Virus record (IMG/VR): IMGVR_UViG_3300023179_000021
Span: 1 to 64,000 of that record
Direction: 5' to 3' (one strand)
Source of the DNA: a virus
Length of the DNA: 64,000 bases
Made by a program: the position numbers and the translations under genes. Positions 26,001 to 49,772 of this stretch are shown here, piece after piece (position 1 is the first letter of the stretch; every line of letters begins with the position of its first letter). A model generated the notes under the pieces. The model was given only the letters and a program-made list of their open reading frames with translations, was not told the origin of the DNA and made no database searches.

Positions 26001-26044
26001 CTAAAATTCGTGATTTCAGAGCAATAGCTTTACCTGCAGGATAG
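20096..26044 (+). CDS. Large virion structural protein (VrlC/DUF4815-like)
   Basis: [25 protein letters not shown]; APGADR; [24 protein letters not shown]; DPLSQTF. Confidence 0.85.
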
Positions 26045-26261: not shown

Positions 26262-27041
26262 ATGGCAATTAATCAAATCAGTACAGCGAATACTTTTGAG
26301 CAATGGTTAATTGCTACTCAGTCACTTATAGCATTTGCCAACTCAATTACCAATGCGGCTCCAGGCGGTACTTTTACATCAAATACTTCAGAGTATATAA
26401 TCACTGGTAATTTAACTCTTGGAAATACAATAACTTGTACTACGGTAAATACAGATGTTATTATTTTTACTGATGGAACAAGGCTATCTTCGAATGTGTC
26501 AATTGTTAATGCTTTTAACAAAGCTAATGCCGCAAATGTTTTAGCGCAGCAAGCTTATGATTATGCAAACACAATTGCTATAAGTGGTGAAATTGCTGGT
26601 GATAATGTTCAAGTTTTATATGCGGTCACTGGAAATAATTTAATAGCGAATGTCTCTATTACAACCAACACACTTACGGGCAATAACATCACCATTGCAA
26701 ACACTGTGACTACCAATAATGTTACTGCTAACTTAGTTACAGCTGTTGACATTAATACAACTTCGGATATAGCCTTAAAAGACAATATTTTAAAGATCAA
26801 TAATTCTTTAGACGTTCTAGAAAAAATTACTGGTTTTACATTTAATTGGAAATCTGATGGTGTTAAATCTTATGGTGTTTCTGCACAAGAGGTCGAAAAA
26901 ATTCTTCCAGAAATTGTAAGAATACGAGATGATGGTTACAAAGGAGTTAATTATTTAAATTTGATAGCATTTTTGATTGAGGCAATAAAAGATTTAAAAA
27001 AAGAAGTATCCGAAATTAAAAAGAATATAAATAAAAAGTAG
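26262..27041 (+). CDS. Fibre protein with C-terminal peptidase S74 intramolecular chaperone
   Basis: TSDIALKDNI..G.TFNWK..GVSAQEVE..LPE.V..VNY..LI..LIEAIKDL. Confidence 0.85.
   Translation: MAINQISTANTFEQWLIATQSLIAFANSITNAAPGGTFTSNTSEYIITGNLTLGNTITCTTVNTDVIIFTDGTRLSSNVSIVNAFNKANAANVLAQQAYDYANTIAISGEIAGDNVQVLYAVTGNNLIANVSITTNTLTGNNITIANTVTTNNVTANLVTAVDINTTSDIALKDNILKINNSLDVLEKITGFTFNWKSDGVKSYGVSAQEVEKILPEIVRIRDDGYKGVNYLNLIAFLIEAIKDLKKEVSEIKKNINKK
27026..27033 (+). promoter_or_regulatory. T4 late promoter TATAAATA at the head of the accessory island
   Basis: Exact consensus. Confidence 0.7.
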
Positions 27042-27104: not shown

Positions 27105-28010
27105 ATGGCAATTAAGGTAGCCGGGACAGTTGTAATTGATGACTCCCGTGTCGTTTCAAATTTAGGTTCTGCGCTTACAGTTAGCAATGGTGGCACAGGC
27201 GCAGGGTCTTTTACAGCAAACAGTTTACTTGTTGGAAATGCTACTTCATCTTTCCAACTTATAGCACCAGGAACATCTGCGAATGTTCTCACCTCCAACG
27301 GAACAAATTGGTATTCATCGGCTCCTGCAGCTGGTGGCGGTGGTTCTGGTCTTTTCAACACTTCAATTAGCACTGGCGTTGGATATTCATTAACTGACGC
27401 AATGGCCAATGCTTATGCCTCAGCAGCAACAGTCGGTTATCGTTACATTGTTCATTCGATTCATGTCACAAATATCAATGGTTTAAGCGCCGCAAATGTT
27501 TCGGGCCAAATTGTTGGAGGTACAGGGTCATACAGTAGCATCGCTTTTGCTAATACTGTTCCGGTTCCAGCTGGTAGTTCAGTGGAATTATTAAAGGCTC
27601 CAAAAATACTACAACCCGAAGATTACATACAATTACAATCTTCGGTAAGCGGTGATTTACATGCTACATTAACTATTGAAACCTCCACTGATACAAAATA
27701 TTTTGGCGCCGGTATTGATGTTACTTCAGCCACAACATACACACAACTTTATGCAATGACTGCTAATTCTGTTGTTGAAAGTGTATTGTTATCAAATGAC
27801 GATCCTTTGTATGATGTTAAAGTTCGTGTTCTTTGGACTAACGCATCGGATGTAATTCAAGGATATTTAGCTTATGAATTAATTGTACCATCTCAGGCTA
27901 CTGTTGAAATTATTGAAAAACCAAAATTCTTTGAAAGTGGTTATAAAGTTAAAGTTTATTCAAATCAAGCTAATCGTATTGAAGCGATCATTGCAGGAAA
28001 AACGGTTTAA
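27105..28010 (+). CDS. Putative fibre-associated structural protein
   Basis: MAIKVAGTVVIDDSR N-terminus, GGTG motif, two related beta-rich domains. Confidence 0.55.
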   Translation: MAIKVAGTVVIDDSRVVSNLGSALTVSNGGTGAGSFTANSLLVGNATSSFQLIAPGTSANVLTSNGTNWYSSAPAAGGGGSGLFNTSISTGVGYSLTDAMANAYASAATVGYRYIVHSIHVTNINGLSAANVSGQIVGGTGSYSSIAFANTVPVPAGSSVELLKAPKILQPEDYIQLQSSVSGDLHATLTIETSTDTKYFGAGIDVTSATTYTQLYAMTANSVVESVLLSNDDPLYDVKVRVLWTNASDVIQGYLAYELIVPSQATVEIIEKPKFFESGYKVKVYSNQANRIEAIIAGKTV

Positions 28011-28012
28011 TT

Positions 28013-30202
28013 ATGCCAGCAACAACAAAAGGTGCATGGAAATTACAAGAAGTTCGTGATGCTTTGTTAGCCGGCGAATGGGTTTCATATAGCCCTCTTG
28101 GTGATGCCGGTGAATTGTGGGTATGGGGTTTTAATCTTTATGGCCAACTAGGAGACAATACCACAACTAATAGATCCTCTCCAATCCAGATACCAGGTAC
28201 CTCCTGGAATGATATAGCAGGTGGTTGTCAGCATTCCTTCGCTCGTAAAACCGATGGTACCTTATGGTCATGGGGTTATAATTCTTTTGGCTCACTAGGA
28301 GACAATACCACAACTTGTAGATCCTCTCCAGTCCAGATACCAGGTACCTCCTGGAATGATATAGCAGGTGGTAGTGTTCATTCCTTAGCTCGTAAATCCG
28401 ATGGTACTTTATGGTCATGGGGTCGTAATAATAATGGCCAACTAGGAGACAATACCACAACTTCTAGATCCTCTCCAGTCCAGATACCAGGTACCCAATG
28501 GAATGATATAGCAGGTGGTAATAGTCATTCCTTAGCTCGTAAATCTGATGGTACCTTATGGGCATGGGGTCTTAATTCTACTGGCCAACTAGGAGACAAT
28601 ACTGCAACTTGTAGATCCTCTCCAGTCCAGATACCAGGTATCCAATGGAATGATATAGCAGGTGGTAGTCTTCATTCCTTAGCTCGTAAATCTGATGGTA
28701 CCTTATGGGTATGGGGTTGTAATCAATATGGCCAACTAGGAGACAATACCACAACTAATAGATCCTCTCCAGTCCAGATACCAGGTACCCAATGGAATGA
28801 TATAGCAAGTGGTGGTTATCATTCCTTAGCTCGTAAATCCGATGGTACCTTGTGGGTATGGGGTTATAATCCTTTTGGCCAAATAGGAGACAATACCACA
28901 GCTCCTGGATCCTCTCCAGTCCAGATACCAGGTACCCAATGGAATGATATAGCAAGTGGTAATTTTTATTCCTTAGCTCGTAAATCTGATGGTACATTAT
29001 GGTCATGGGGTGCTAATAATTATGGCCAAATAGGAGACAATACCAAAACTTATAGATCCTCTCCAGTCCAGATACCAGGTACCCAATGGAATGATATAGC
29101 AGGTGGTTTTTATCATCCCTTAGCTCGTAAATCTGTAGCTCCTGTTTTTAATGATAATTTAGGATCTACCTTATGGGCATGGGGTCGTAATTCTACTGGC
29201 CAACTAGGAGACAATACCACAACTTGTAGATCCTCTCCAATCCAAATACCAGGTACCCAATGGAATGATATAGCAGGTGGTAATTACCATTCCTTAGCTC
29301 GTAAATCCGATGGTACCTTATGGGCATGGGGTTCTAATTTTTTTGGCCAACTAGGAGACAATACCAGAACTTATAGATCCTCTCCAGTTCAGGTACCAGG
29401 TACCCAATGGAATGATATAGCAGGTGGTAACCATTCCTTAGCTCGTAAAACCGATGGTACCTTATGGGTATGGGGTTGTAATCAATATGGCCAACTAGGA
29501 GACAATACCACAACTAATAGATCCTCTCCAGTCCAGATACCAGGTACCCAATGGAATGATATAGCAAGTGGTGGTTATCATTCCTTCGCTCGTAAATCCG
29601 ATGGTACCTTATGGTCATGGGGTTATAATGCTTTTGGCCAACTAGCAGACAATACCAGAACTTGTAGATCCTCTCCAGTCCAGGTACCAGGTACCCAATG
29701 GAATGATATAGCAAGTGGTAATTTTTATTCCTTAGCTCGTAAATCTGATGGTACATTATGGTCATGGGGTGCTAATAATTATGGCCAAATAGGAGACAAT
29801 ACCACAACTTGTAGATCCTCTCCAGTCCAGATACCAGGTACCCAATGGAATGATATAGAAGGTGGTTGTAACCATTCTTTAGCTCGTAAATCCGATGGTA
29901 CCTTATGGTCATGGGGTTATAATCTTTATGGCCAACTAGGAGACAATACCACAACTTGTAGATCCTCTCCAATCCAGATACCAGGTACCCAATGGAATGA
30001 TATAGCAGGTGGTGGTAACCATTCTTTAGCTCGTAAATCTGATGGTACCTTATGGGTATGGGGTCGTAATAATTGTGGCCAACTAGGAGACAATACCACA
30101 ACTTATAGATCCTCTCCAGTCCAGGTACCAGGTACCCAATGGAATGATATAGCAAGTGGTAATAGTCACTCTTTAGCCATCAAATACAATAATACCGCTT
30201 AA
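28013..30202 (+). CDS. RCC1/BLIP-II-type repeat protein 1 (2 x 7 blades)
   Basis: 14 repeats of ~49 aa: LWxWGxNxxGQLGDNTTTxRSSPVQIPGTQWNDIAGGxxHSLARKSDGT. Confidence 0.92.
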   Translation: MPATTKGAWKLQEVRDALLAGEWVSYSPLGDAGELWVWGFNLYGQLGDNTTTNRSSPIQIPGTSWNDIAGGCQHSFARKTDGTLWSWGYNSFGSLGDNTTTCRSSPVQIPGTSWNDIAGGSVHSLARKSDGTLWSWGRNNNGQLGDNTTTSRSSPVQIPGTQWNDIAGGNSHSLARKSDGTLWAWGLNSTGQLGDNTATCRSSPVQIPGIQWNDIAGGSLHSLARKSDGTLWVWGCNQYGQLGDNTTTNRSSPVQIPGTQWNDIASGGYHSLARKSDGTLWVWGYNPFGQIGDNTTAPGSSPVQIPGTQWNDIASGNFYSLARKSDGTLWSWGANNYGQIGDNTKTYRSSPVQIPGTQWNDIAGGFYHPLARKSVAPVFNDNLGSTLWAWGRNSTGQLGDNTTTCRSSPIQIPGTQWNDIAGGNYHSLARKSDGTLWAWGSNFFGQLGDNTRTYRSSPVQVPGTQWNDIAGGNHSLARKTDGTLWVWGCNQYGQLGDNTTTNRSSPVQIPGTQWNDIASGGYHSFARKSDGTLWSWGYNAFGQLADNTRTCRSSPVQVPGTQWNDIASGNFYSLARKSDGTLWSWGANNYGQIGDNTTTCRSSPVQIPGTQWNDIEGGCNHSLARKSDGTLWSWGYNLYGQLGDNTTTCRSSPIQIPGTQWNDIAGGGNHSLARKSDGTLWVWGRNNCGQLGDNTTTYRSSPVQVPGTQWNDIASGNSHSLAIKYNNTA
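28112..30183 (+). repeat. 147-bp coding tandem repeat, 14 units in two blocks of 7
   Basis: Near-identical nucleotide units with a short linker at ~29133-29165. Confidence 0.92.
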
Positions 30203-30218
30203 CTTTTAACAAACAATT

Positions 30219-31094
30219 ATGAGATATTTCAAATTCACACAAATCTCCGGCGAAACAGGACGATCATGGGCTTTTGCTCAACCAGTTTCGGGACCTTCGT
30301 TTCCAAACCTTCCTGGAATCACCAATATTATTAAACTTGACCATGATTCTTTTTATTACGTCGGTGAGATTTCTGGTGAGACTGATATTCCCACCATCCA
30401 GGAATACCAAGATGCTATTAGTTACTTAGCTGATGAAAACAATAGACCTCAACGAACACCCGATCAACCACTTATTCCTGAAGTTCCTGAAGATTCTCCA
30501 TGGCGTGTCGCAGAAAGAACCGCAAATAGGTATCAAAATTATGTAAACAATGGCAACCTTTGCTTTGAAATAACATTCGAAGAATATGCACAAGAACTGG
30601 AAAAAACAGTTACATTCCATATCAACAAACGAAAGGCCACAATTTATGATGAAGAGAAATCCTTTCGCCAATCAATCTTTTCTAAATACGATGAAACAGC
30701 CGCTATCGCTGGAATTTATAAGTATCAGGAAGCCCTTGAATTGTTAGCCAATGAAAATGCCTTAGCTCCACAAGTACGCCAAGAAGCAACCATTCGTGGT
30801 GTTTCACCAAGTGTTATGGCTACAAGAATTAAAGACAATCACGAAAGTTTTAGAACCAAAGAAACTAAGATTGCAGGTATTCGAGGTTTAATTCAAGATA
30901 GGTTAAATAATTTTGTGTTTGATGTAAATGATGCTGTGGGATCCTATAATGAATTTTATTCTTTGGATATCATAGGTACACGAACAGAAATGCGTCTTAA
31001 CCCAGAAGCACCCGGTGAACAAATTGAAACCACTGTGAATATAACTGTACCTAAGTATGAATTGGCATTAGAACAAAGATTCTATCAGACATGA
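30219..31094 (+). CDS. Hypothetical protein, possibly a tail-fibre assembly chaperone
   Basis: EA.IRGV....MA.RI...H..F....IAGIR helical motif reminiscent of fibre assembly proteins. Confidence 0.45.
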   Translation: MRYFKFTQISGETGRSWAFAQPVSGPSFPNLPGITNIIKLDHDSFYYVGEISGETDIPTIQEYQDAISYLADENNRPQRTPDQPLIPEVPEDSPWRVAERTANRYQNYVNNGNLCFEITFEEYAQELEKTVTFHINKRKATIYDEEKSFRQSIFSKYDETAAIAGIYKYQEALELLANENALAPQVRQEATIRGVSPSVMATRIKDNHESFRTKETKIAGIRGLIQDRLNNFVFDVNDAVGSYNEFYSLDIIGTRTEMRLNPEAPGEQIETTVNITVPKYELALEQRFYQT

Positions 31095-33280
31095 CAACAA
31101 TTACAACAACAAAATGTGGTGCTTGGATACTTGATGATACTTATAAAAAAGTTCAATCGGGATATTGGACCTATGATGCTACGTTTGAAGGTGAATTGTG
31201 GTTATGGGGTCGTAATACTTATGGCCAACTGGGAGACAATACCACAACTTGTAGATCCTCTCCAATCCAGATACCAGGTACCTCCTGGAATGATATAGCA
31301 GGTGGTTGTCAGCATTCCTTCGCTCGTAAAACCGATGGTACCTTATGGGTATGGGGTTCTAATGTTTATGGCCAAATAGGAGACAATACCACAACTTATA
31401 GATCCTCTCCAGTCCAGGTACCAGGTACCCAATGGAATGATATAGTAGGTGGTAATAGTCATTCCTTAGCTCGTAAATCCGATGGTACCTTGTGGGTATG
31501 GGGTTATAATGTTTATGGCCAAATAGGAGACAATACCAGAACTCAAAGGTCCTCTCCAGTCCAGATACCAGGTACCTCCTGGAATGATATAGGAGGTGGT
31601 GGTTATCATTCCTTAGCTCGTAAATCTGATGGTACCTTGTGGGCATGGGGTGCTAATCCTTATGGCTCACTAGGAGACAATACCACAACTCCTAGATCCT
31701 CTCCAGTCCAGGTACCAGGTACCTCCTGGAATGATATAGCAAGTGGTGGTTGTCATCATTCCTTAGCTCGTAAATCCGATGGTACCTTATGGTCATGGGG
31801 TTATAATAGTTTTGGCTCACTAGGAGACAATACCAGAACTCAAAGATCCTCTCCAGTCCAGATACCAGGTACCCAATGGAATGATATAGCAAGTGGTAGT
31901 TTTCATTCCTTAGCTCGTAAATCTGATGGTACATTATGGTCATGGGGTGCTAATAATTATGGCCAAATAGGAGACAATACCATAACTCAAAGATCCTCTC
32001 CAGTCCAGATACCAGGTACCCAATGGAATGATATAGCAGGTGGTGATTATCATTCCTTAGCTCGTAAATCCGATGGTACCTTGTGGTCATGGGGTCTTAA
32101 TCAATTTGGCCAACTAGGAGACAATACCAAAACTTATAGATCCTCTCCAGTCCAGGTACCAGGTACCCAATGGAATGATATAGCAGGTGGTTTTTATCAT
32201 CCCTTAGCTCGTAAACCTGTGGCTCCTGTTTTTGGTGAAGGATGTACACTTTGGGCATGGGGTCGTAATGCTGAAGGCCAACTAGGAGACAATACCACAA
32301 CTAATAGATCCTCTCCAGTCCAGGTACCAGGTACCCAATGGAGTGATATAGCAGGTGGTTGTAGTCATTCCTTAGCTCGTAAATCCGATGGTACCTTATG
32401 GTCATGGGGTTATAATAATAATGGCCAATTAGGAGACAATACCACAACTTGTAGATCCTCTCCAGTCCAGATACCAGGTACCTCCTGGAATGATATTGTG
32501 AGTGGTAGTATTCATTCCTTAGCTCGTAAATCCGATGGTACCTTATGGGTATGGGGTCGTAATCAATATGGCGAACTAGGAGACAATACCACAACTTGTA
32601 GATCCTCTCCAGTTCAGGTACCAGGTACCCAATGGAATGATATAGCAGGTGGTAATTACCATTCCTTAGCTCGTAAATCCGATGGTACCTTATGGTCATG
32701 GGGTTCTAATTTTTTTGGCCAACTAGGAGACAATACCAGAACTAATAGGTCCTCTCCAATCCAGGTACCAGGTACCCAATGGAATGATATAGCAAGTGGT
32801 AGTCTTCATTCCTTAGCTCGTAAATCCGATGGTACCTTATGGGTATGGGGTCGTAATGATTCTGGCGAACTAGGAGACAATACCACAACTAATAGATCCT
32901 CTCCAGTCCAGATACCAGGTACCCAATGGAATGATATAGAAGGTGGTTGTGTCCATTCCTTAGCTCGTAAATCCGATGGTACCTTATGGTCATGGGGTTA
33001 TAATTGTTTTGGCCGACTAGGAGACAATACCACAACTTGTAGATCTTCTCCAGTCCAGGTACCAGGTACCACATGGAATGATATAGAAAGTGGTGATCTC
33101 CATTCCTTAGCTCGTAAATCCGATGGTACCTTATGGATATGGGGTGTTAATGCTTCTGGCGAACTAGGAGACAATACCAGAACTACTAGATCCTCTCCAG
33201 TCCAGATACCAGGTACCCAATGGAATGATATAGCAGGTGGTAATAACCATTCTTTAGCCATCAAATGTTTTCCGGTATAA
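31091..33280 (+). CDS. RCC1/BLIP-II-type repeat protein 2 (2 x 7 blades)
   Basis: 14 repeats of the same unit. Confidence 0.92.
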   Translation: MTTITTTKCGAWILDDTYKKVQSGYWTYDATFEGELWLWGRNTYGQLGDNTTTCRSSPIQIPGTSWNDIAGGCQHSFARKTDGTLWVWGSNVYGQIGDNTTTYRSSPVQVPGTQWNDIVGGNSHSLARKSDGTLWVWGYNVYGQIGDNTRTQRSSPVQIPGTSWNDIGGGGYHSLARKSDGTLWAWGANPYGSLGDNTTTPRSSPVQVPGTSWNDIASGGCHHSLARKSDGTLWSWGYNSFGSLGDNTRTQRSSPVQIPGTQWNDIASGSFHSLARKSDGTLWSWGANNYGQIGDNTITQRSSPVQIPGTQWNDIAGGDYHSLARKSDGTLWSWGLNQFGQLGDNTKTYRSSPVQVPGTQWNDIAGGFYHPLARKPVAPVFGEGCTLWAWGRNAEGQLGDNTTTNRSSPVQVPGTQWSDIAGGCSHSLARKSDGTLWSWGYNNNGQLGDNTTTCRSSPVQIPGTSWNDIVSGSIHSLARKSDGTLWVWGRNQYGELGDNTTTCRSSPVQVPGTQWNDIAGGNYHSLARKSDGTLWSWGSNFFGQLGDNTRTNRSSPIQVPGTQWNDIASGSLHSLARKSDGTLWVWGRNDSGELGDNTTTNRSSPVQIPGTQWNDIEGGCVHSLARKSDGTLWSWGYNCFGRLGDNTTTCRSSPVQVPGTTWNDIESGDLHSLARKSDGTLWIWGVNASGELGDNTRTTRSSPVQIPGTQWNDIAGGNNHSLAIKCFPV
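31193..33264 (+). repeat. 147-bp coding tandem repeat, 14 units
   Basis: Same unit as 28112-30183. Confidence 0.92.
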
Positions 33281-33300
33281 TTATTATTTTTTTATAAATT

Positions 33301-33882
33301 ATGCTTTTATTTGATTATGTTACGGTGATGCCAAACTGCTTAAATGATTCTTTACTTGATATGTATTTGTCATTAAAAGAACAAGAAGTTTCTCCGGCAC
33401 TTACCGGTTATTCCGATAACCAAAAAACAAACCTTGAGTATCGTAAAACAAATTGGATTCCTATACCTTATGACCTTTTACAACAAACTCAGGCCTCCAT
33501 TACTTCTTTTTATAATGGTATGCTTCTTGACAAATATAAACAACCAATTAAATTTATTGAACCTACACAATTACTCCATTACCCCGTTGGTGGTGAATAT
33601 AAAGAACATAATGATTCTGAAGATTTTGTCCACGGAAAACTGACAAGAGTTTGCGAAAGAGACTTGTCGATTTTAGCCTACCTAAATGATGACTATGAAG
33701 GTGGTGAACTCGAACTAAATAACTTTAATGTGACATTTAAACCAAAGGCCGGAACTGTGATTTGCTTTCCTTCCTACATTGAATTCACACACCGAGTTTA
33801 TCCGGTGACCAAAGGTAACAGATATACACTTGCAACATGGATATGCACCTATGAACGAATCTACTCCAGACCATACTTATGA
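33301..33882 (+). CDS. 2OG-Fe(II) oxygenase, prolyl 4-hydroxylase-like
   Basis: QLLHY..G.EY..HND..LS...YLNDDYEGGEL..FP....H.V.PV.KG.RY. Confidence 0.88.
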   Translation: MLLFDYVTVMPNCLNDSLLDMYLSLKEQEVSPALTGYSDNQKTNLEYRKTNWIPIPYDLLQQTQASITSFYNGMLLDKYKQPIKFIEPTQLLHYPVGGEYKEHNDSEDFVHGKLTRVCERDLSILAYLNDDYEGGELELNNFNVTFKPKAGTVICFPSYIEFTHRVYPVTKGNRYTLATWICTYERIYSRPYL

Positions 33883-34492
33883 CAAAGAAGGCTTTATCGT
33901 ACTTCGAAAATTTATACCACATTTTTTCGCTGACTACCTTAAAACCTATTTCGACACATTAAAAACAAACGATAAATTACAAAAAGGCGATGCACAAGTC
34001 GGTAATTCTTTGTGTACCTATGGTGACCCAGCCTTTGATACTTTTATGCTTATGTCGGCACCTTTGATTTCTGGTGCCGTAGGAAAGCAATTATTTCCAA
34101 CTTATACTTACGCACGAATTTATTACAAAGGCTCCGAATTACTTCCACATATTGATCGAGATGAGTGTGAACATTCGGTATCGGTATTTCTTGGTGGTGA
34201 ATATGATACGCTATGGCCAATTTGGATGCTAAATAAAGAAGTACACAAGCAACCTCAAATGTGTGCGCTTTATTCTGGTGATGCCGTAGTTTATCAGGGA
34301 AACAAAGTACATCATTGGCGTGATGGTTTCGAGGGCACCTCACACTATCAATTGTTTATGCACTTTGTTGAAGCCGATGGCAAACACAAGGATAAAATTT
34401 ACGACACTCGCCCCTTTATAGGATTACCAAGTGACACAAAAACAGATTATGGACTTTCAAGCGATCAACGACCAAGCGAAGAACCTGTTTGA
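33851..34492 (+). CDS. 2OG-Fe(II) oxygenase
   Basis: PTYTYARIY..G..L..H.DR..CE.S..GDAVVY.G....HWR..FMHFV. Confidence 0.8.
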   Translation: MNESTPDHTYDKEGFIVLRKFIPHFFADYLKTYFDTLKTNDKLQKGDAQVGNSLCTYGDPAFDTFMLMSAPLISGAVGKQLFPTYTYARIYYKGSELLPHIDRDECEHSVSVFLGGEYDTLWPIWMLNKEVHKQPQMCALYSGDAVVYQGNKVHHWRDGFEGTSHYQLFMHFVEADGKHKDKIYDTRPFIGLPSDTKTDYGLSSDQRPSEEPV

Positions 34493-35630
34493 CCAAAAAC
34501 AATTTTCTGAAGCTCTTCAATTACTTGATCGTCCTGACCTACCAAAAGAACTCATACCAAATTTAGCCAAGTGCTATTATTACACTTCAAGGGCTCCCGA
34601 GGCTCTTGAATTGTTATTGCCACTGAAGAAAGACGCAGACCTTTGGATTGATACGGCTCTTTATTACAATGCCATAGGAAACCATGATAAGGCTCTTGAA
34701 ATTTATGAGACATTAAATAAAGAAGATTCAAAAGTTGCTTTTAATATAGCCTGGCATTACCTAAGAAACAATGAATTTTCAAAAGGGTTTAAACTCATAC
34801 AAAAAGGGTCTGAAGTAAGATCCTGGGGTCACGAATACCTTCACCTTGAAAATGGCATCGTTCATCCCGAGAACCGATGGAGTGGTCAACAAACCAATCA
34901 TTTAGTTCTTTTACTTGAAGGTGGTCTGGGTGATGAATTTATTTTTTTACGATGGGCCAATTACCTTAAAACAAAATGTAATAAGTTAACCATTCTTTGT
35001 AATCCATCCCTTCTTCGTTTACTGACCAATGCTGGGTATGATGTAATGCCAAGTAGCGCACTGAAAGAATTAGACTACGATCATTATGCACCAAGTATGG
35101 CTTTACCCGATATTCTTGGTTTAAATTCACCACAAGAACATGTCGTTTTTCCTTATATAAAATCCTATGTTGAACCATTTATTACCAAGCAAATGAATAA
35201 AGTAGCGAATGGCCAAAAAAAGATTGGCATTAAATGGTTTGGAAATCCAGAGTTTGAACATGACCAATTTAGAACGGTACCCTCAGATGCACTGAAGGAT
35301 CTTGAAGAATTTGGTCAATTATTTTCTTTACAATTTGAAGATGGTGACCCAAGAATACCAAATTGCCGAGAAATCATTCGAGACTGGCAAGATACCTATT
35401 CGGTCTTTGGTAGTCTTGATTTAATGGTGACCAGTTGTACCAGTACCGCACATTTAGCTGGTGCCATGGGTATACCTGTCATTGTTTTGGTTCCATTAGT
35501 ACCGTATTTTGTATGGGCTTCTGATACAATGCCCTGGTATCCAAAAAATGTAAAGGTTCTCAGACAAACTAAATACAATGACTGGTCTGAAACCTTGAAA
35601 GAACTATACCATGAAATATCAAGAATTTAA
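34449..35630 (+). CDS. TPR-containing glycosyltransferase (GT9-like, GT-B fold)
   Basis: N-terminal TPR-like helices; EGGLGDE..F.R; DLMVTSCTSTAHLAGAMG.P; WYP...RQ. Confidence 0.78.
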   Translation: MDFQAINDQAKNLFDQKQFSEALQLLDRPDLPKELIPNLAKCYYYTSRAPEALELLLPLKKDADLWIDTALYYNAIGNHDKALEIYETLNKEDSKVAFNIAWHYLRNNEFSKGFKLIQKGSEVRSWGHEYLHLENGIVHPENRWSGQQTNHLVLLLEGGLGDEFIFLRWANYLKTKCNKLTILCNPSLLRLLTNAGYDVMPSSALKELDYDHYAPSMALPDILGLNSPQEHVVFPYIKSYVEPFITKQMNKVANGQKKIGIKWFGNPEFEHDQFRTVPSDALKDLEEFGQLFSLQFEDGDPRIPNCREIIRDWQDTYSVFGSLDLMVTSCTSTAHLAGAMGIPVIVLVPLVPYFVWASDTMPWYPKNVKVLRQTKYNDWSETLKELYHEISRI

Positions 35631-36219
35631 ATTATTTCCAACAACTGTCTTGCGTTTTGATTGCTCTGAGGTGATTACAAATGATGATGTAAACGCTATG
35701 ATTTTCGACATTGATAAAATTTGTGACAATGGTAAGTACATACAAGACGATGAAAAAACTCCCAAATATCAAAGTAAACCTATTTTGTTTTTAGATGAAG
35801 CACCAGAAATTTGGCAGAAACTTAAATATACTTTTTTAAATTCTTGCCAACAATATTTACAAACCGTGAATGATTTTGTCAACAATCAAAACTCAATGCA
35901 ATTCACTGGTGCTCGAGCCTGGTTCTACAAGGGCTGGAAATCCTTTAATGTTACACAAACCAACCCATGGCATAATCACAACCCTTCGTTTCTTTCGGGT
36001 GTATTTTATTTAAGTGTTCCTGGAAATGAAAATGAAGGTGGCACCGAATTTATGGACCCAAGACAAAATGAATCTCATGGTGTTCGTAATCAATTTATCG
36101 CACCAATTAATTTAACTTGGGTTATTTTTCCAGGGTGGCTCTATCATCGTTCGAGCTATTGTGATACTGAAACACCTAGGTATGTCATTGCTGCCGATTC
36201 TTATGTAAAAGTGCAATAA
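35611..36219 (+). CDS. Putative 2OG-Fe(II) oxygenase (TIGR02466-like)
   Basis: LFPT..WHNH..FLSGVFYL..IFPGWLYH..R. Confidence 0.78.
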   Translation: MKYQEFKLFPTTVLRFDCSEVITNDDVNAMIFDIDKICDNGKYIQDDEKTPKYQSKPILFLDEAPEIWQKLKYTFLNSCQQYLQTVNDFVNNQNSMQFTGARAWFYKGWKSFNVTQTNPWHNHNPSFLSGVFYLSVPGNENEGGTEFMDPRQNESHGVRNQFIAPINLTWVIFPGWLYHRSSYCDTETPRYVIAADSYVKVQ

Positions 36220-36806
36220 TGTACCAACAGTTTATTCACACAAAACCGGAAGTCAAAGAGGTGGCCACTGATATTTTGGCCGTTGAATTTTGGAAGCCAG
36301 AGTTTTGTGAGTATGTCATTGAGGCTGCCGAAAACATAGGTGGTTTTCAAAGTCATCCAAGTGACCCGGTACCTGGTTCGGAGCTTCGCATAAATAAAAT
36401 TTCCGAAGAGCTTTACACTTCTTATTGTAGACATTGGAAATATATTCTGCAACCCATTCTTGAAGATTATTATCAACTTCCATCGGAGCAATGGTTCTTT
36501 GGTTGGAAAGTTCCGTTCATTATTAAGTATACAATGAACGGTCAAAGAAATTTAAGAAAACATTTTGATGGCAGCTTAATTACGGGATCAGTGAAATTAA
36601 ATGATAAATACAGAGGTGCCGAGTTAGTATTTCCTAGGCAAAAGTTTTCAAATAAGAATGTTCCTATTGGTTGGATTTTACTTTGGCCAAGCAGTATACA
36701 ACATTTACATTTTTGTGATGATTTAATAGAGGGTACAAAATATTCTTTGACTTGTTGGACTAAACAGGATATAAAAGAGCAAGGAATCAATTACAAGGAT
36801 GTTTAA
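36219..36806 (+). CDS. 2OG-Fe(II) oxygenase, lysyl-hydroxylase (PLOD) catalytic-domain-like
   Basis: EFC..VIE..E; FIIKY...Q..L..HFD.S.IT..V.LN..Y.G..L.FPR; H.H....L..GTKY. Confidence 0.75.
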   Translation: MYQQFIHTKPEVKEVATDILAVEFWKPEFCEYVIEAAENIGGFQSHPSDPVPGSELRINKISEELYTSYCRHWKYILQPILEDYYQLPSEQWFFGWKVPFIIKYTMNGQRNLRKHFDGSLITGSVKLNDKYRGAELVFPRQKFSNKNVPIGWILLWPSSIQHLHFCDDLIEGTKYSLTCWTKQDIKEQGINYKDV

Positions 36807-38989
36807 TGGTAACTAAAAATGTATTTCGTTTAAAGAAATATTATGAATTAGTTTTGGCTGGTTGTGTGGGTTATGATGCTACGTTTGATGGCGGTGAATT
36901 GTGGTCGTGGGGTTATAATGGTGATGGCCGACTAGGAGACAATACCAAAACTTGTAGATCCTCTCCAATCCAGATACCAGGTACCCAATGGAATGATATA
37001 GCAATCGGTAATTCTCATTCCTTAGCTCGTAAATCCGATGGTACCTTGTGGGCATGGGGTGATAATGGTAGTGGCTTTCTAGGAAACAATACCACAACTC
37101 CTAGATCCTCTCCAGTCCAGATACCAGGTACCCAATGGAGTGATATAGCAAGTGGTGGTAACCATTCTTTAGCCTGCAAATCTGATGGCACTTTATGGGT
37201 GTGGGGATCTGGTAATTGTGGCCGTTTAGGAATCAATTCTACATCTCAAAGATCCTCTCCGATCCAGGTACCAGGCACCACATGGAGTGATATATCGGGT
37301 GGTGAAAGTCATTCCTTAGCTCTTAAATCCGATGGTACCTTGTGGTCATGGGGTTATAATGTTTATGGCCAACTAGGAGACAATACCACAACTCAAAGAT
37401 CCTCTCCAGTCCAGGTACCAGGCACCCAATGGAATGTTATAGAGGGTGGTAGTTCCCATTCCTTAGCTCGTAAATCCGATGGTACCTTATGGGTATGGGG
37501 TAATAATAGTTCTGGCAACCTAGGAGACAACACCACAACTTGGAAATCCTCTCCAGTCCAGATACCAGGTACCCAATGGAATGATATAGTAGGTAGTGCT
37601 AGTTTTTCTTTAGCTCGTAAATCCGATGGTACCTTATGGTCATGGGGTTATAATGGTTCTGGCCGACTAGGAGACAATACCACAACTAATAGATCCTCTC
37701 CAGTCCAGATACCAGGTACCCAATGGAATGATGTAGGGAGTAGTGTTGCCCATTCCTTAGCTCGTAAATCCGATGGTACCTTATGGTCATGGGGTGTTAA
37801 TAATTGTGGCCAACTAGGAGACAATACCACAACTTATAGATCCTCTCCAGTCCAGATACCAGGTACCCAATGGAATGATATAGCAGGTGGTAGTTCCCAT
37901 TCCTTAGCTCGTAAATCTGTGGCTCCAGTTTTTGATGAGGGTGCTTGTACCTTATGGTCATGGGGTTATAATAATTGTGGCCAACTAGGAGACAATACCA
38001 CAACTAATAGATCCTCTCCAATCCAGATACCAGGTTTTCGGTGGAATGATATAACAGGTAGTGGTTGTCATTCCTTAGCTCGTAAATCCGATGGTACCTT
38101 ATGGGCATGGGGTAATAATGGTCAAGGCCAACTAGGAGACAATACCATAACTCCTAGATCCTCTCCAGTCCAGGTACCAGGTACCCAATGGAATGATATA
38201 GCAAATGGTAATAGGCATTCCTTAGCTCGTAAATCCGATGGTACCTTATGGGCATGGGGTGCTAATGGTAGTGGCGAACTAGGAGACAATACTGGAACTT
38301 ATAGATCCTCTCCAATCCAGATATCAGGTACCCAATGGAATGATATAGAAGGTGGTGGTAGCCATTCCTTAGCTCTTAAATCCGATGGTACCTTATGGGT
38401 ATGGGGTTATAATTATAATGGCCAACTAGGAGACAATACCAATACTAATAGATCCTCTCCAATCCAGGTACCAGGTACCCAATGGAATGATATAGCAGGT
38501 GGTGTTAGCTTTTCCTTAGCTCGTAAATCCGATGGTACCTTGTGGTCATGGGGTGCTAATGGTGTTGCCCAACTAGGAGACAATACCAGAACTTATAGAT
38601 CCTCTCCAGTCCAGGTACCAGGTACCCAATGGAATGATATAGCGGGTGGCGGTTTTCAATCCTTAGCTCGTAAAACCGATGGTACCTTATGGGCATGGGG
38701 TAATAATGGTCGAGGCAACCTAGGAGACAATACCAGAACTTATAGATCCTCTCCAGTCCAGATACCAGGTACCCAATGGAATGATATAGGAGGGGGATGT
38801 CTTTATTCCTTAGCTCGTAAAACCGATGGTACCTTATGGGTATGGGGCGATAATGATAAAGGTCAATTGGGACAAATAACTTATACTGATCGGAGGTCTT
38901 CTCCAGTCCAGGTACCAGGTACCCAATGGAGTGATATAGCAAAGGTTGATAACCATTCTTTAGCCATCAAATACAATAGTACCGCTTAA
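36806..38989 (+). CDS. RCC1/BLIP-II-type repeat protein 3 (2 x 7 blades)
   Basis: 14 repeats of the same unit, somewhat more diverged. Confidence 0.92.
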   Translation: MVTKNVFRLKKYYELVLAGCVGYDATFDGGELWSWGYNGDGRLGDNTKTCRSSPIQIPGTQWNDIAIGNSHSLARKSDGTLWAWGDNGSGFLGNNTTTPRSSPVQIPGTQWSDIASGGNHSLACKSDGTLWVWGSGNCGRLGINSTSQRSSPIQVPGTTWSDISGGESHSLALKSDGTLWSWGYNVYGQLGDNTTTQRSSPVQVPGTQWNVIEGGSSHSLARKSDGTLWVWGNNSSGNLGDNTTTWKSSPVQIPGTQWNDIVGSASFSLARKSDGTLWSWGYNGSGRLGDNTTTNRSSPVQIPGTQWNDVGSSVAHSLARKSDGTLWSWGVNNCGQLGDNTTTYRSSPVQIPGTQWNDIAGGSSHSLARKSVAPVFDEGACTLWSWGYNNCGQLGDNTTTNRSSPIQIPGFRWNDITGSGCHSLARKSDGTLWAWGNNGQGQLGDNTITPRSSPVQVPGTQWNDIANGNRHSLARKSDGTLWAWGANGSGELGDNTGTYRSSPIQISGTQWNDIEGGGSHSLALKSDGTLWVWGYNYNGQLGDNTNTNRSSPIQVPGTQWNDIAGGVSFSLARKSDGTLWSWGANGVAQLGDNTRTYRSSPVQVPGTQWNDIAGGGFQSLARKTDGTLWAWGNNGRGNLGDNTRTYRSSPVQIPGTQWNDIGGGCLYSLARKTDGTLWVWGDNDKGQLGQITYTDRRSSPVQVPGTQWSDIAKVDNHSLAIKYNSTA
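36896..38971 (+). repeat. 147-bp coding tandem repeat, 14 units
   Basis: Same unit as the other two arrays. Confidence 0.9.
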
Positions 38990-39007: not shown

Positions 39008-39865
39008 ATGAAAAATATGAATTTTTGTATAGGGTTGCCTCGTTCCGGTTCAACCCTTTTGATGAATATCCTTCAACAAAACCCTAGCATCTTTACATCA
39101 TCAACTTGTCCAACTCCATACCTAGTTGAAGGTTGTAAAATACAGGCCACATCTATATCCGAGTTTATTGCTATGGATCAGGATGTGCTTACTAAGTCTC
39201 TCCTTTCTTTTATGAAATATGGTATTGATGGTTGGTACAATGCCTTAACCAATAAACCAAATATCATTTCTAAGTCGAGGTGCTGGGACAGTAATTTAAA
39301 TATGATTTTTGCTCTTTATGAAAACCCCAAGATTATCATTTCGCTTCGTGATGTTCGAGATATAATTTGTTCTTTTGAAAAACTTCTTCAAAGACATCCA
39401 ATGTGGACAATAGGTTCCAAAGAAGACCCTGTACACCTAATGCCCTTTGAAAAACGAATGGAAATTTATTGTACCGATGTTGGTGCAAATTTAGGAAGGC
39501 CACTTTATTACCTTCCACATGTTTACGAATGGATGCAAAAGAGGCCAAATAATTTCTTTCTTTTTCGTTTTGAAGACTTTAATGAAAAACCAAAAGAATC
39601 GTTGAGATCACTGTATCAATGGCTCGACCTACCCTATTTCGACCATGACTTAAATAACATACCTCCGGCTGAACAGTATGAACATGACACTGTTTATCGA
39701 GCTCTAGTTTCACACAAGACCGAAACAAAACTAAGATATATGGAACCGAACTATATATCTATGATGACGCCAGAACAATCGGACCTTGTCATACGGCACA
39801 ATGAATTTTTTTACAAGACATTTTATCCTGAAATTTATTATGAAAAATCAAATAGAATTTCGTAA
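39008..39865 (+). CDS. Sulfotransferase family protein
   Basis: 5'-PSB loop GLPRSGSTLL; 3'-PB KIIISLRDVRDIICSF; RFEDF...P...L..LY.WL. Confidence 0.85.
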   Translation: MKNMNFCIGLPRSGSTLLMNILQQNPSIFTSSTCPTPYLVEGCKIQATSISEFIAMDQDVLTKSLLSFMKYGIDGWYNALTNKPNIISKSRCWDSNLNMIFALYENPKIIISLRDVRDIICSFEKLLQRHPMWTIGSKEDPVHLMPFEKRMEIYCTDVGANLGRPLYYLPHVYEWMQKRPNNFFLFRFEDFNEKPKESLRSLYQWLDLPYFDHDLNNIPPAEQYEHDTVYRALVSHKTETKLRYMEPNYISMMTPEQSDLVIRHNEFFYKTFYPEIYYEKSNRIS

Positions 39866-40373
39866 GGTATTTAAAGAACTTCCAGTTTTTACAACAAACA
39901 TTGGTCAACATCGACAGGCTATTGAAATGGCCGCTAAAGCCATTTTTGAAGAGCGCCAAAAAAATCCAAGAAGAATGGAATCTAATGTTAAGGCCGATTA
40001 TGTTTCTTCTTGGGGAAGCCATTTAAACAATCCAAATTTTCAGCCACTCATTGACATTGTTCTATCGTTTTGTGAAGAAGTATCTAAGACATATTTTAAT
40101 GTTGAATTGAAGTATAAAATATATAATTGTTGGGGTATGTTATATGAGAAAGGCGACTATGCAGTAAAACATTCACATTTTCCATCGACCTTTGCTGCGG
40201 TTATATACCTTGAAGTTGAAAAAGATTCTGCACCAATTGTATTTGAAGATGAACTGACCGTTGTTCCAGCTTCAGGCTCATTAATTCTTTTTCCAGCGAT
40301 TCTTCACCATGAAGTGCCTAAAACAAAAGGACGAAGAATGGTAATTTCTATGAACATCGACCACATATCATAA
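39840..40373 (+). CDS. Putative 2OG-Fe(II) oxygenase (TIGR02466-like)
   Basis: WGMLY.KGD....HSHFP..F.AVIYL..LILFP..L.HEV..R.VISMNI. Confidence 0.8.
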   Translation: MKNQIEFRKVFKELPVFTTNIGQHRQAIEMAAKAIFEERQKNPRRMESNVKADYVSSWGSHLNNPNFQPLIDIVLSFCEEVSKTYFNVELKYKIYNCWGMLYEKGDYAVKHSHFPSTFAAVIYLEVEKDSAPIVFEDELTVVPASGSLILFPAILHHEVPKTKGRRMVISMNIDHIS

Positions 40374-40383
40374 CGGAGTACCT

Positions 40384-40848
40384 ATGAACCAAAGAATTAT
40401 TAACGTATTTAATGACTTTCAAATTGCTGACCTTGATGATGATATGGTTGGAATTTGTAAGACATTGGTAGATTTTATGAAAGAGATTCGTCGGCAAATA
40501 CCCGATGAAGAGTACCCTGAAGCCGAACCGCCACATAACTTTTATAAAATGCAACCACATCAGCCAAAAATGGAGTTAAGAAAAAACTACAGAAAACTTT
40601 TGGCTAATACCGTAAGAAATCAACACCCAATTGTATCTCATAACATTAAACTTTTAAACCTTTATGTTGTTCTTCTTACAGCTGCATACCTCTATCACCT
40701 GCCCGTTGAAAAGATGGTTGAACTCAGTAAAAATGTCGATGGTGAATTTACAAGAAAAGAATCTGAACAATTATTGCTTGATGATACCATGTCGCCGAAC
40801 TGGCTCAAAGAACCATCGGGAAAGGACTTCACTGCGATTATGTTATGA
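40384..40848 (+). CDS. Hypothetical protein
   Basis: ORF with GGAG RBS, coupled to the next gene. Confidence 0.6.
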   Translation: MNQRIINVFNDFQIADLDDDMVGICKTLVDFMKEIRRQIPDEEYPEAEPPHNFYKMQPHQPKMELRKNYRKLLANTVRNQHPIVSHNIKLLNLYVVLLTAAYLYHLPVEKMVELSKNVDGEFTRKESEQLLLDDTMSPNWLKEPSGKDFTAIML

Positions 40849-41522
40849 AATTTAATTATGAATATACACATGAACGTGAAATTGAATCGGCTTACATACT
40901 TAAATTATCAGGTAATCCAGTTTCACAAGAGCTTTCTGAAAGATGTAAATACACTTGTGACAAAGTTGGAATGCCTGCTAAATATTGGGAGGCCTTTGAT
41001 GGCACCAATAAAGTTGATGTCATTATACCAAATCACCTTAAAAACAAAGATCATATACAGTGGCTAAAAGTACATAAAACAGACATAAGTACCACGCAAG
41101 TTGCTATTATCATGTCGCATTTTTCATTATGGTGCCACTGTATGACCATTGATAAACCAATTGTTATTTTTGAACATGATGCTGTAATGATTAAACCTTT
41201 ACTTAAATTTGGTTTTTATAATATGATACAGTTTTTAGGATGTATAGAACAAGTAAAGGGAACGCTACCGGTATTTAAGTTACCTCCACACGCATCTTGG
41301 TATGAAGGCCGCCTAAGGTTTATTTGTCGTGCTCATGCGTATGCCATTGACCCACAAATAGCCAAAAATTTAGTTTCTCATATTCTAAGAGTTGGAATTA
41401 TTACAACGGCTGATGTTTTTATGCGCTCCGATTTATTTGGAATTATACAAGATGATGTGTATGCCTACGATATGGCTGGTGAATCTATAAATTACGAACT
41501 ACAGAACTCCATAAATTCATGA
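40845..41522 (+). CDS. Glycosyltransferase family 25-like
   Basis: AFDG..SHFSLW..C....PIVIFEHDA..AHAYAIDP..AK.L. Confidence 0.75.
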   Translation: MKFNYEYTHEREIESAYILKLSGNPVSQELSERCKYTCDKVGMPAKYWEAFDGTNKVDVIIPNHLKNKDHIQWLKVHKTDISTTQVAIIMSHFSLWCHCMTIDKPIVIFEHDAVMIKPLLKFGFYNMIQFLGCIEQVKGTLPVFKLPPHASWYEGRLRFICRAHAYAIDPQIAKNLVSHILRVGIITTADVFMRSDLFGIIQDDVYAYDMAGESINYELQNSINS

Positions 41523-49771: not shown

Positions 49772-49772
49772 A

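Follow-up and report, generated by a model that had tools for sequence, protein, structure and literature searches.

Three genes in the window, a 64,000-nucleotide stretch of viral DNA, encode repeat proteins in which a nearly uniform blade scaffold carries six hypervariable codons per blade. Our explanation, to which as a whole we give a probability of about two in three, is concerted evolution combined with diversifying selection on probable host-binding proteins. It takes the genes to encode double seven-bladed RCC1-type propellers on short gene-specific N-terminal anchors, in an island of the late tail-fibre/baseplate module of an uncultured lake phage, a T4-like aquatic myovirus that has its relatives among the freshwater cyanomyoviruses.

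Repeat anatomy and surroundings of the RCC1 genes

The three RCC1 genes lie on the + strand at 28013-30202 (gene 1, 729 aa), 31091-33280 (gene 2, 729 aa) and 36806-38989 (gene 3, 727 aa). Each consists of 14 units of 147 bp (49 codons), anchored by an LWxWG motif and ordered as seven units, a "VAPVF.." linker of 7-9 residues and seven further units. The open reading frames, the unit counts and Pfam, whose RCC1 family matches gene 1 in 14 stretches (E 7e-144), confirm the three genes of 2x7 blades proposed in a preliminary description of this DNA. The 145.6-kb record holds exactly 42 DNA copies of the unit, every one within these genes. Units 1-7 of gene 1 start at 28115, its linker spans ~29132-29170 and units 8-14 start at 29171; the units start at 31196 in gene 2 (linker ~32216-32248) and at 36899 in gene 3 (linker ~37916-37951). 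The scaffold of gene 3 is slightly more diverged, with a dS of 0.12-0.13 against genes 1 and 2, compared to 0.08 between gene 1 and gene 2. The N-terminal anchor of gene 1 (28013-28114, + strand, ~34 aa) is kept between strains: residues 1-26 are identical in the near-strain contigs L014 and L016, with one synonymous difference in each, and AF2 models residues 11-19 as a short helix and residues 24-26 as a strand. The anchor type of gene 2 also occurs in ~740-aa phage proteins (P0098, P0104, P0105 and P0027) whose blades are ordinarily diverged.

Tail-fibre and baseplate genes neighbour the island, and a site resembling a late promoter lies nearby. Upstream, a tail-fibre-type protein (26262-27041, + strand) has a C-terminal S74 chaperone domain (Pfam Peptidase_S74, E 4e-13) and matches many PHROG tail-fibre families. 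The T4-type late-promoter-like TATAAATA (27026-27033, + strand) stands ahead of the island's first gene; the motif has 3 matches in the window, a count below chance, two of which (13437 and 27026) are just upstream of gene starts. It hints, weakly, that the island may be transcribed late. Directly upstream of gene 1 is a 301-aa phage-only protein (27105-28010, + strand) with no Pfam or PHROG match and only viral hypothetical proteins in the Atlas; its gene has 97% nucleotide identity in L014 and 77% in L016. Between genes 1 and 2 is a 291-aa phage-only protein (30219-31094, + strand; 4-base overlap with the start of gene 2), which matches no Pfam or PHROG family and is not a paralogue of the 301-aa protein; its gene is 97.6% identical in L014 and has a distant homologue between two RCC1 genes in L019. 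The intervening genes at 33301-36806 (+ strand) are three 2OG-Fe(II) oxygenase-like genes, one of the PHROG "ferrochelatase" family and one TPR gene, and a sulfotransferase (39008-39865, + strand; Pfam Sulfotransfer_3, E 2e-14) directly follows gene 3.

Hypervariable codons on a homogenised scaffold

Per-codon analysis of the 42 units revealed six hypervariable columns (6, 8, 9, 19, 38 and 39) with residue entropies of 2.7-3.4 bits. Within these codons, entropy was 1.3-1.97 bits at positions 1-2 and 0-0.5 bits at position 3 (1.3 bits in column 39). T-ending codons accounted for 84.7% of them, against 59.7% expected for the same residues from phage codon usage, and 92 of the 98 four-fold Gly, Ala, Val, Pro and Thr codons ended in T, against ~45% by our own estimate from genome fractions. 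The variable residues are rich in Tyr, Asn, Ser, Phe, Cys and Gly, whereas Lys and Met are absent (0/576) and Cys, at 7%, is approximately a random NNT draw (1/16). The pN of these codons, 0.58 (dN ~1.1), is ~10 times the scaffold dS and ~4 times their own dS, and selection probably maintains the diversity. Outside the six codons the units are ~92% identical, with near-invariant DNA runs of ~45 nt. Specifically, the scaffold codons GGC, GGA, GAC, AAT, ACC, TCC, TCT, CCA, CAG, CCA, GGT and ACC are the same in 38-42 of the 42 units, while CAA (28/42), CTA (32/42), GTC (30/42) and ATA (26/42) are less fixed. Apart from the latter four codons, these data bear out the earlier claims of about six variable codons per unit, mostly NNT (85%), and of a 147-bp scaffold nearly identical even at synonymous sites.

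The secondary structure predicted by AF2 has four strands per unit and places columns 6, 8, 9, 17 and 19 in the D-A loop and columns 38-39 in the B-C loop. When aligned to UVR8 by HMMER, columns 38-39 correspond to the W-R of GWRHT and column 6 to the W of SWGWG, residues that belong to the UVR8 dimer interface (PMC4501546). Because the AF2 model is of mediocre quality (pLDDT 67) and its Foldseek TM scores to UVR8 (target-normalised) are low, mostly ~0.4 and at best 0.58, the placement is drawn from strand topology and sequence homology rather than from coordinates. By these, the six columns, which fall in two loop classes, probably share one propeller face, as had been suggested, and it would be the face through which UVR8 dimerises.

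New in this analysis are the loop placement of the variable codons and the occurrence of the same scaffold in six metagenome contigs of near strains, with propeller-wise gene sizes and without blade-by-blade orthology. Most flanking genes in these contigs are 96-99% identical. The main caveat is that all these arrays were assembled from short metagenomic reads. Between the window and L014, whose flanking genes are 97% identical, blade identity was 86.3% on the diagonal and 85.8% off it, and at non-hypervariable sites it was 0.917 for orthologous against 0.915 for non-orthologous blades (p=0.27). No unit was common to two strains, the best pair between gene 1 of the window and of L014 being 94% identical. 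Positional orthology of blades is lost between near strains. Moreover, scaffold pS was 0.06-0.17 in every unit comparison, whether within a gene, between genes or between strains, and scaffold dS between gene 1 of the window and of L016 was 0.06 though the adjacent genes had dS of 0.86 and 0.52. Homogenisation of the scaffold across the three genes and across strains is strongly supported. The number of blades per gene was 7 (L016 and L012), 14 or 21 (L017), always in whole propellers, and each of the 16 propellers in 9 complete genes had exactly 7. The 7-blade genes terminate in a "..SLARKA" tail of their own, and the next gene abuts them.

Source of the diversity

The recurring residue patches listed in the preliminary description are all present in the arrays. 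Seven tracts with at least three hypervariable codons were found against 1.5 expected from column-shuffled controls, and two with at least five against 0 in 200 shuffles. Within contigs, the mosaic tracts exceed the shuffled controls (11 tracts, where 2.2 were expected and 100 shuffles gave at most 7). The longest are in gene 1, where 44 codons from unit 4 column 47 to unit 5 column 41 recur from unit 9 column 47 to unit 10 column 41, and 39 codons from unit 6 column 27 to unit 7 column 16 recur from unit 11 column 27 to unit 12 column 16; between these perfectly identical tracts are 34 codons with ~10 differences. The mosaic tracts are few, 75-132 nt long and mostly intragenic, and sharing of patches or tracts between strains was not above chance. 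The variable columns are near linkage equilibrium, z=3.2 being reached by columns 8-9 only. Shuffling is genuine but minor; the bulk of the diversity shows no dependence between sites and is not common to strains. Of the proposal that recombination homogenises the scaffold and shuffles patches, the homogenisation stands for all three genes, with a few mosaic tracts, but given the near linkage equilibrium ready-made patches are not the main source of diversity.

Homologous recombination among the 147-bp units, by short gene-conversion tracts and unequal exchange, could act inside single genes, among the three genes and between co-infecting strains. It would keep the blade scaffold nearly uniform in DNA, which is concerted evolution, and would gain or lose whole propellers to give 7, 14 or 21 blades. 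Diversifying selection would keep the six codons per blade, in the D-A and B-C loops, maximally different.

A dedicated targeted hypermutation, either DGR-like or an unknown RT-independent process, might instead randomise the first two bases of the NNT codons, with recombination minor. We consider this highly improbable, although it would suit the nearly maximal entropy at positions 1-2 (up to 1.97 of 2 bits) beside a constant third-position T, the lack of Lys and Met, the Cys frequency, the almost unlinked columns, the complete turnover between strains despite 97% identical flanks, and close units that differ in both codon bases (for example g1-1 and g2-1). Near-uniform positions 1-2, Cys at 7% and near linkage equilibrium at sites 30 nt apart also fit a site-targeted mutator, and this counts against our explanation. 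However, no RVT_1 match was found in the 145.6-kb record (83% complete) or in the complete genome of the Synechococcus phage S-SRM01 (NC_070963, Kyanoviridae), which has the same pattern, and the record has no 43rd, non-coding copy of the unit as a template, in line with the earlier claim that no reverse transcriptase is needed. Furthermore, scaffold adenines are invariant, including AAT at columns 7, 15 and 32; variation is not limited to A positions (ACA/AGA in column 17, GTC/ATC in column 24); the codons are unlike those from A-mutagenesis of AAT, with CAT, GAT, ATT and ACT rare and TTT, TGT, GGT and CGT common; and the rare third-position variants CAA, GAA and TGG occur at about the rate expected of selected point mutations. 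Recombination rather than a dedicated mutator therefore probably drives the pattern. It is very unlikely, too, that the units were amplified in one recent burst and then diverged by ordinary point mutation under positive selection, without ongoing gene conversion. Scaffold dS among units (~0.1) does resemble the 0.05-0.17 measured between strains for most flanking genes, and the NNT bias would suit a young age, but a burst does not accommodate scaffold polymorphisms without positional orthology between strains, a scaffold dS of 0.06 beside genes at 0.5-0.86, or differences clustered between perfectly identical tracts. Since S-SRM01 has its own homogenised scaffold in syntenic genes, separate recent bursts would be needed in each lineage.

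The scrambled order, shared patches and 7/14/21 counts could also be largely short-read assembly artefacts of a mixed population whose true arrays are orderly and orthologous. The similarity of the units and their near-invariant runs lend themselves to this, the longest shared tracts are intragenic with the same 5-unit offset, and Illumina assemblies of analogous repeats in Podospora were shown to be wrong and unreliable (PMC11761791). We nevertheless regard it as rather improbable: random graph walks would not keep seven blades in 16/16 propellers with intact frames and correctly placed linkers and C-terminal tails, the distinct tail and abutting neighbour of the 7-blade genes are not what a simple collapse would give, positional orthology would survive strain switching at homologous positions, and the isolate genome S-SRM01 has the same architecture. 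Finally, the propellers might evolve fast not as virion adhesins but because they act inside the cell or are secreted and bind, for example as decoys or inhibitors, variable host proteins of defence or surface remodelling. The RCC1 proteins have no tail-fibre domain and only faint PHROG tail matches, the genes around them encode modifying enzymes (2OG oxygenases, a sulfotransferase, glycosyltransferases), and RCC1-like propellers elsewhere (UVR8, HERC2, RCC1) bind proteins. This appears unlikely because the genes are directly behind tail-fibre/baseplate genes in one co-oriented, late-looking block, as in S-SRM01, where they follow the distal subunit of the long tail fibre; an RCC1 gene in L013, which has another anchor, comes after a collagen-like fibre gene, and anchors that are short and conserved between strains are suited to docking on a structure.

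Related systems and a probable role in host binding

The RCC1 genes of S-SRM01 (gp335, gp337 and gp344, annotated "regulator of chromosome condensation") are not mentioned in the paper on that phage. As in the window, three such genes follow a long-tail-fibre gene, TPR and 2OG-oxygenase genes lie between them, the third is followed by a sulfotransferase, and the homogenised units of the three vary at corresponding positions. They differ in forming single 7-blade propellers of 153-bp units, with a different scaffold homogenised across the three genes, ~50% protein identity and other N-terminal anchors. UVR8, the RLD domains of HERC1/HERC2 and RCC1 are matched in sequence (E 2e-47 to 1e-22) and are also the best Foldseek matches. 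In the alignment, the variable columns coincide with W94 and the W-R of GWRHT, which are UVR8 interface residues, but these eukaryotic proteins each form one propeller, whose blades have diverged and whose partners are fixed, and the match does not imply a GEF or photoreceptor function for the phage propellers.

The previously suggested analogy to lamprey VLR and TALE arrays is loose. These too are repeat proteins that draw specificity from few variable residues on a conserved scaffold, but VLRs are assembled somatically from cassettes in a deaminase-dependent manner and TALE repeats read DNA through two residues, whereas the phage arrays show no sign of programmed assembly and patch sharing is rare. 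DGRs combine a fixed scaffold with a few fully randomised codons in which a fixed third base avoids stop codons. Those acting on phage receptor-binding proteins (BPP-1 Mtd type of Bordetella phage; tentaclins, PMC10743442) likewise place a few randomised codons on a fixed scaffold in a tail-module protein. In contrast, the phage arrays have no detected reverse transcriptase or template repeat, variation that is not adenine-specific beside invariant scaffold adenines, 42 variable units rather than one C-terminal variable region, and an RCC1 rather than a C-type-lectin fold.

By comparison, the closest known system, much closer than VLRs or TALEs, is the fungal HNWD WD40 repeats. The HNWD genes (het-d, het-e, het-r) of Podospora anserina encode NLR-like proteins whose repeats show "high internal conservation" (Paoletti 2007 and Chevanne 2010, as cited in PMC11761791). 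They resemble the phage arrays in having beta-propeller repeats 80-100% identical in DNA within and between paralogues, put down to concerted evolution; few hypervariable codons per repeat, under diversifying selection on a predicted interaction surface; and repeat-number polymorphism, with a model of two 7-blade propellers. They differ in fold family (WD40 units of 42 aa against RCC1 units of 49 aa), in number of variable codons per repeat (four against six) and in belonging to a fungus rather than a virus. The phage proteins have no NACHT/NB-ARC or effector domain, their copy number shifts by whole propellers (7/14/21), and their probable target is the surface of the host, not an allelic self protein.

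In the literature available to us, we found nothing linking these RCC1 proteins to adsorption. From their genomic setting, they are probably virion proteins that bind the host. The outcome of recombination and diversifying selection would be a ring of Tyr/Asn/Ser/Phe/Cys/Gly-rich residues, most likely a ligand-binding surface for host cell-surface structures, and the scrambled loop codons fit fast-evolving host-binding heads.

Three double-propeller RCC1 genes in a tail-fibre module

The IMG/VR record whose first 64 kb form the window is linear, 145.6 kb long and estimated to be 83% complete. The phage is a T4-like myovirus that encodes portal, large terminase, tail sheath and baseplate wedge proteins as well as S74-capped tail fibres, and its portal protein is ~50-55% identical to the portals of cyanomyoviruses and a few other T4-like phages. 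Three RCC1 genes on the plus strand (gene 1, 28013-30202; gene 2, 31091-33280; gene 3, 36806-38989) form an island bordered on the 5' side by a tail-fibre-type gene (26262-27041) and on the 3' side by a sulfotransferase gene (39008-39865). Two open reading frames of the island, 27105-28010 and 30219-31094, were considered as paralogous partners and rejected, as they show no mutual similarity; neither was assigned to any family.

Each RCC1 gene encodes a gene-specific N-terminal segment of ~31-35 residues, followed by seven units, a linker of 7-9 residues ('VAPVF..') and seven further units. The units are 49 residues long and of RCC1 type; in gene 1, PF00415 matched 14 stretches (E 7e-144) and PF25390 matched with an E value of 2e-211. 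Both a profile search above the curated cut-off and a DNA search recovered exactly 42 RCC1 units in the whole record and none outside the three genes. Numbering columns from the L of LWxWG, an AlphaFold2 model of moderate quality placed four strands in each 49-residue unit, at columns 1-5, 24-26, 31-36 and 40-45. The linker follows exactly seven units in all 16 propellers of the window and its near strains, and the best PDB matches by sequence and by fold were 7-blade RCC1-family propellers. The proteins are thus RCC1-repeat proteins with seven-bladed, four-strand propellers. To our knowledge bacteria have no Ran, and the database label 'regulator of chromosome condensation' reflects the fold family only.

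Several neighbouring loci were also noted. Genes for modifying enzymes crowd around gene 3 (33301-36806 and 39008-45796), comprising three 2OG-Fe(II) oxygenase-like genes, a gene of the PHROG 'ferrochelatase' family, a TPR gene and the sulfotransferase gene; the third RCC1 gene of the Synechococcus phage isolate S-SRM01 has comparable surroundings (TPR, 2OG oxygenase, sulfotransferase). Further downstream lie two collagen-like tail-fibre genes (47114-50654) with abundant Ser-Gly-Tyr/Ile/Phe triplets and S74 chaperone ends, the first of which (47114-49771) has many PHROG tail-fibre matches; a related repeat is present on L013, a metagenome contig of a near strain. A 1982-residue protein of PHROG 358 (function unknown) is encoded at 20096-26044, with the baseplate wedge genes on one side and the tail-fibre gene on the other; its C-terminal part is just 82% identical in the near strain L014. 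Two genes at 43664-44963 are 61-81% identical to those of the near strain L012 (dS 0.8-1.3) while their neighbours are 96-99% identical; they form a second, small mosaic island on the 3' side of the RCC1 genes. The T4-type late-promoter-like sequence TATAAATA occurs three times in the whole window, where nine occurrences are expected by chance, and two of the three copies (at 13437 and 27026) stand just upstream of a gene start. This scarcity and placement fit a late promoter of T4 type, with the motif being avoided at other sites.

Probable concerted evolution of the scaffold and loss of blade orthology

A search with the scaffold DNA pattern retrieved six metagenome contigs (L012-L017) from two samples. 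Most flanking genes on these contigs are 96-99% identical to the window (dS 0.05-0.17, dN about 0.005), and a few are far more diverged. Their RCC1 genes carry the scaffold and the N-terminal anchors of the window, the anchors differing at 0-1.5 synonymous sites per 26 codons. By DNA and by scaffold pattern, no near relatives were found in the phage collection or IMG/VR, where the record itself may be masked. Among 5.8 billion protein sequences, the matches were all generic RCC1 proteins with no more than 53% identity.

DNA identity is 80-99% for most pairs of units and falls to 67-78% for the degenerate units 3 and 14 of gene 3; the non-hypervariable sites are ~92% identical. Scaffold pS is 0.06-0.17 whether units are compared within a gene, between genes or between strains. 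When gene 1 of the window was compared with gene 1 of L016, the scaffold dS was 0.06 and the dS values of the adjacent genes were 0.86 and 0.52. S-SRM01 is a cultured cyanomyovirus from freshwater whose genome is complete, and its gene order matches that of the window: long-tail-fibre gene, RCC1, hypothetical gene, RCC1, TPR, 2OG oxygenase, RCC1, sulfotransferase. Its three RCC1 genes have seven blades each, built of 153-bp units that are ~80% identical to one another, with variable residues at positions corresponding to those of the window and a scaffold that differs from it. Since the S-SRM01 units are homogenised on a scaffold of their own, paralogues within a genome are far more alike than syntenic genes between genomes. 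Relatives that share the gene 2 anchor (the phage proteins P0098, P0104, P0105 and P0027, and the contig L019) have ordinarily diverged blades, which indicates that homogenisation is lineage-specific.

Blade order is not preserved among the near strains. For gene 1 of the window and of L014, blades at the same position are 86.3% identical and blades at different positions 85.8%, with flanks at 97%; at the remaining polymorphic sites the values are 0.917 and 0.915 (p=0.27). The hypervariable codons taken alone likewise show no positional orthology, and the same was true of every between-strain gene pair tested. Blade number differs as well. L016 and L012 have complete 7-blade versions of all three genes, each ending in '..SLARKA' and running right up to the next gene. 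The genes of L014 and L015 have 14 blades, and the gene 3 allele of L017 has 21 (3x7; L017:880-4140 on the minus strand, orthologous to window 36806-38989). Blade number therefore changes by whole propellers among near strains, subject to the reliability of the assemblies. At its second junction ('..SLAIKCFLPIGEGCS..'), the L017 allele seems to join a C-terminal tail of gene 2 type to a linker, an arrangement suggesting that recombination at the linker or tail adds propellers. On L013 the same scaffold DNA (L013:1435-1866) is joined to another N-terminal domain ('MTLPSAGALSLSQVNTELGRS..'), so that a related phage shows a fourth type of anchor; upstream of it is a collagen-like (Ser-Gly-Tyr)n fibre gene whose C-terminus is of S74 type.

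The preliminary description had proposed that recombination shuffles variable patches among blades, and all of the recurring patches that it named are present. In the window we counted seven in-register tracts with at least three identical hypervariable codons, against 1.5 in column-shuffled controls, and two with at least five, against none in 200 shuffles. Within gene 1, identical tracts of 44 and 39 codons join units 4/5 to 9/10 and units 6/7 to 11/12; the 34 codons between them include ~10 that differ, scaffold codons among them. This pattern is a signature of patchy conversion and not of point mutation. Over all contigs, 11 within-contig tracts were found where 2.2 were expected, whereas the 14 between-strain tracts (7.8 expected) were not significant. 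Patch sharing between strains was at chance level, and no whole unit was common to different strains. Mutual information among the variable columns was weak, with columns 8-9 the sole pair to reach z=3.2. Since linkage is weak and sharing between strains is at chance, site states combine almost freely in the repertoire, apart from a recent tract here and there. Shuffling thus occurs, but for the same reasons cassette shuffling was rejected as the main source of diversity.

All arrays compared here come from short-read metagenome assemblies, and individual tracts and blade orders are provisional. The constant seven blades, the intact reading frames and the isolate genome of S-SRM01 together argue that the overall picture is real.

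Hypervariable codons and their predicted place on the propeller

Variation is concentrated in six columns (6, 8, 9, 19, 38 and 39), where residue entropy is 2.7-3.4 bits. Columns 3, 11, 17, 30, 35, 36 and 40 are moderately variable and the remaining columns are nearly fixed to the codon level, so that the near-identical scaffold and the mostly NNT hypervariable codons reported from the first reading of the sequence were both borne out. In these six columns the first two codon positions come close to the maximum of 2 bits, and the third is nearly always T. T-ending codons make up 84.7%, compared with 59.7% expected for the same residues under the phage's own codon usage, which rules out codon usage as the source of the bias; among four-fold Gly/Ala/Val/Pro/Thr codons, 92 of 98 end in T. 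The hypervariable codons have a pN of 0.58 (dN about 1.1), ~10 times the scaffold dS and ~4 times their own dS. The residues encoded are rich in Tyr (20%), Asn, Ser, Phe, Cys and Gly; acidic residues are rare, and Lys and Met are absent (0/576). Cys (TGT) accounts for 7.3% of hypervariable residues (window 28115-38989), which is 10.6 times the phage background and near the 1/16 share of random NNT. Such a residue composition resembles that of binding surfaces.

In each protein this design would put 84 variable residues on two rigid rings. The AlphaFold2 model of gene 1 was built from a 9-sequence alignment and has a pLDDT of 67. Columns 6, 8, 9, 17 and 19 fall in the long loop after the WG strand, assigned as D-to-A, and columns 38 and 39 in the short G-x-x-H loop, assigned as B-to-C. 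In propeller topology the D-to-A and B-to-C loops lie on one common face; by the same topology the less variable columns 30 and 46 would lie on the opposite face. In a HMMER alignment with UVR8, columns 38-39 fall on the W-R of GWRHT and column 6 on the second W of SWGWG, which are dimer-interface residues of UVR8 (PMC4501546). Since Foldseek comparison of the model with UVR8 gave TM scores mostly of about 0.4 (best 0.58), too poor for geometric mapping, we infer from topology and alignment that the variable columns share one propeller face.

Origin and significance of the diversity

The closest described system is the Podospora HNWD family (PMC11761791). Its WD40 repeats are 80-100% identical through concerted evolution, carry four hypervariable codons each on the interaction surface, are polymorphic in number and form two 7-blade propellers; Illumina assemblies of such repeats are unreliable (PMC11761791), a warning that covers every array compared here. 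The term high internal conservation (HIC) is defined for fungal NLR WD40/ANK/TPR repeats that evolve in concert. Like these, the phage arrays have mostly more than 80% DNA identity within and between paralogues, a few hypervariable codons per repeat with dN far above dS and, allowing for the assemblies, repeat-number polymorphism and repeat exchange. In the literature covered, we found no paper linking cyanophages with RCC1 or describing such phage repeats, and the S-SRM01 paper does not mention its RCC1 genes. One paper that appeared to tie 'RCC1' to a viral hypervariable region was a false match, RCC being a culture-collection prefix there.

A classical diversity-generating retroelement (DGR) was considered and rejected. 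Consistent with the earlier view that no reverse transcriptase would be needed, RVT_1 matched neither the 145.6-kb record (83% complete) nor the complete genome of S-SRM01, while control genomes matched. There is no template repeat, since the record holds exactly 42 copies, all of them coding. The adenines of the scaffold do not vary, nor do the AAT codons at columns 7, 15 and 32, and non-A positions are variable too. Taken together, the lack of a reverse transcriptase in both genomes, the lack of a template and the invariant scaffold adenines exclude a DGR as far as the data go. The family of this phage is noted for its very active recombination, and we favour ordinary homologous recombination among units, together with diversifying selection that acts on one face of proteins that probably bind the host. 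Under this reading the NNT pattern would be expected of units that are recent or under constant homogenisation, their third positions staying at a neutral level of ~0.1, provided that no mutations other than amino-acid-changing ones are driven to high frequency. Rare hypervariable codons (CAA, GAA, TGG and AAA) are present, in keeping with the minor fraction of third-position changes that affect the residue. Alternatively, a dedicated, codon-phase-aware mechanism without reverse transcriptase could randomise six NNT codons per blade, a diversity generator working on 42 sites at once while recombination merely maintains the scaffold. The near-uniform base use, Cys at its random-NNT level and the weak linkage between variable sites all fit such a targeted mutator, which would be a new class of targeted diversity generator; we nevertheless consider it very unlikely.

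Gene context makes the RCC1 propellers probable host-binding proteins. The genes lie co-oriented within the tail-fibre and baseplate module, with the late-promoter-like TATAAATA at 27026, those of S-SRM01 are likewise placed behind a long-tail-fibre gene, and the short anchors are conserved, a fourth type occurring on the same scaffold behind the collagen-like fibre gene of L013. The analysis of the window adds propellers in pairs, near strains that differ in blade number (7/14/21), a positional orthology that is completely lost beside 97% identical flanks and the near-independence of variable sites, here quantified. The locus brings a design known from fungal immune receptors, high internal conservation with hypervariable sites, to viruses and to a second family of propellers. 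With surfaces that are restricted to NNT codons and rich in Tyr, Ser and Asn, on a rigid scaffold, it resembles man-made binder libraries. If the propellers are host-binding heads, they would be adhesins diversified by the phage's own recombination machinery and repeat design alone. Near-identical co-occurring strains have completely different sets and different numbers of propellers, and in freshwater T4-like phages this variation would then contribute greatly, and so far without annotation, to host-range microdiversity.
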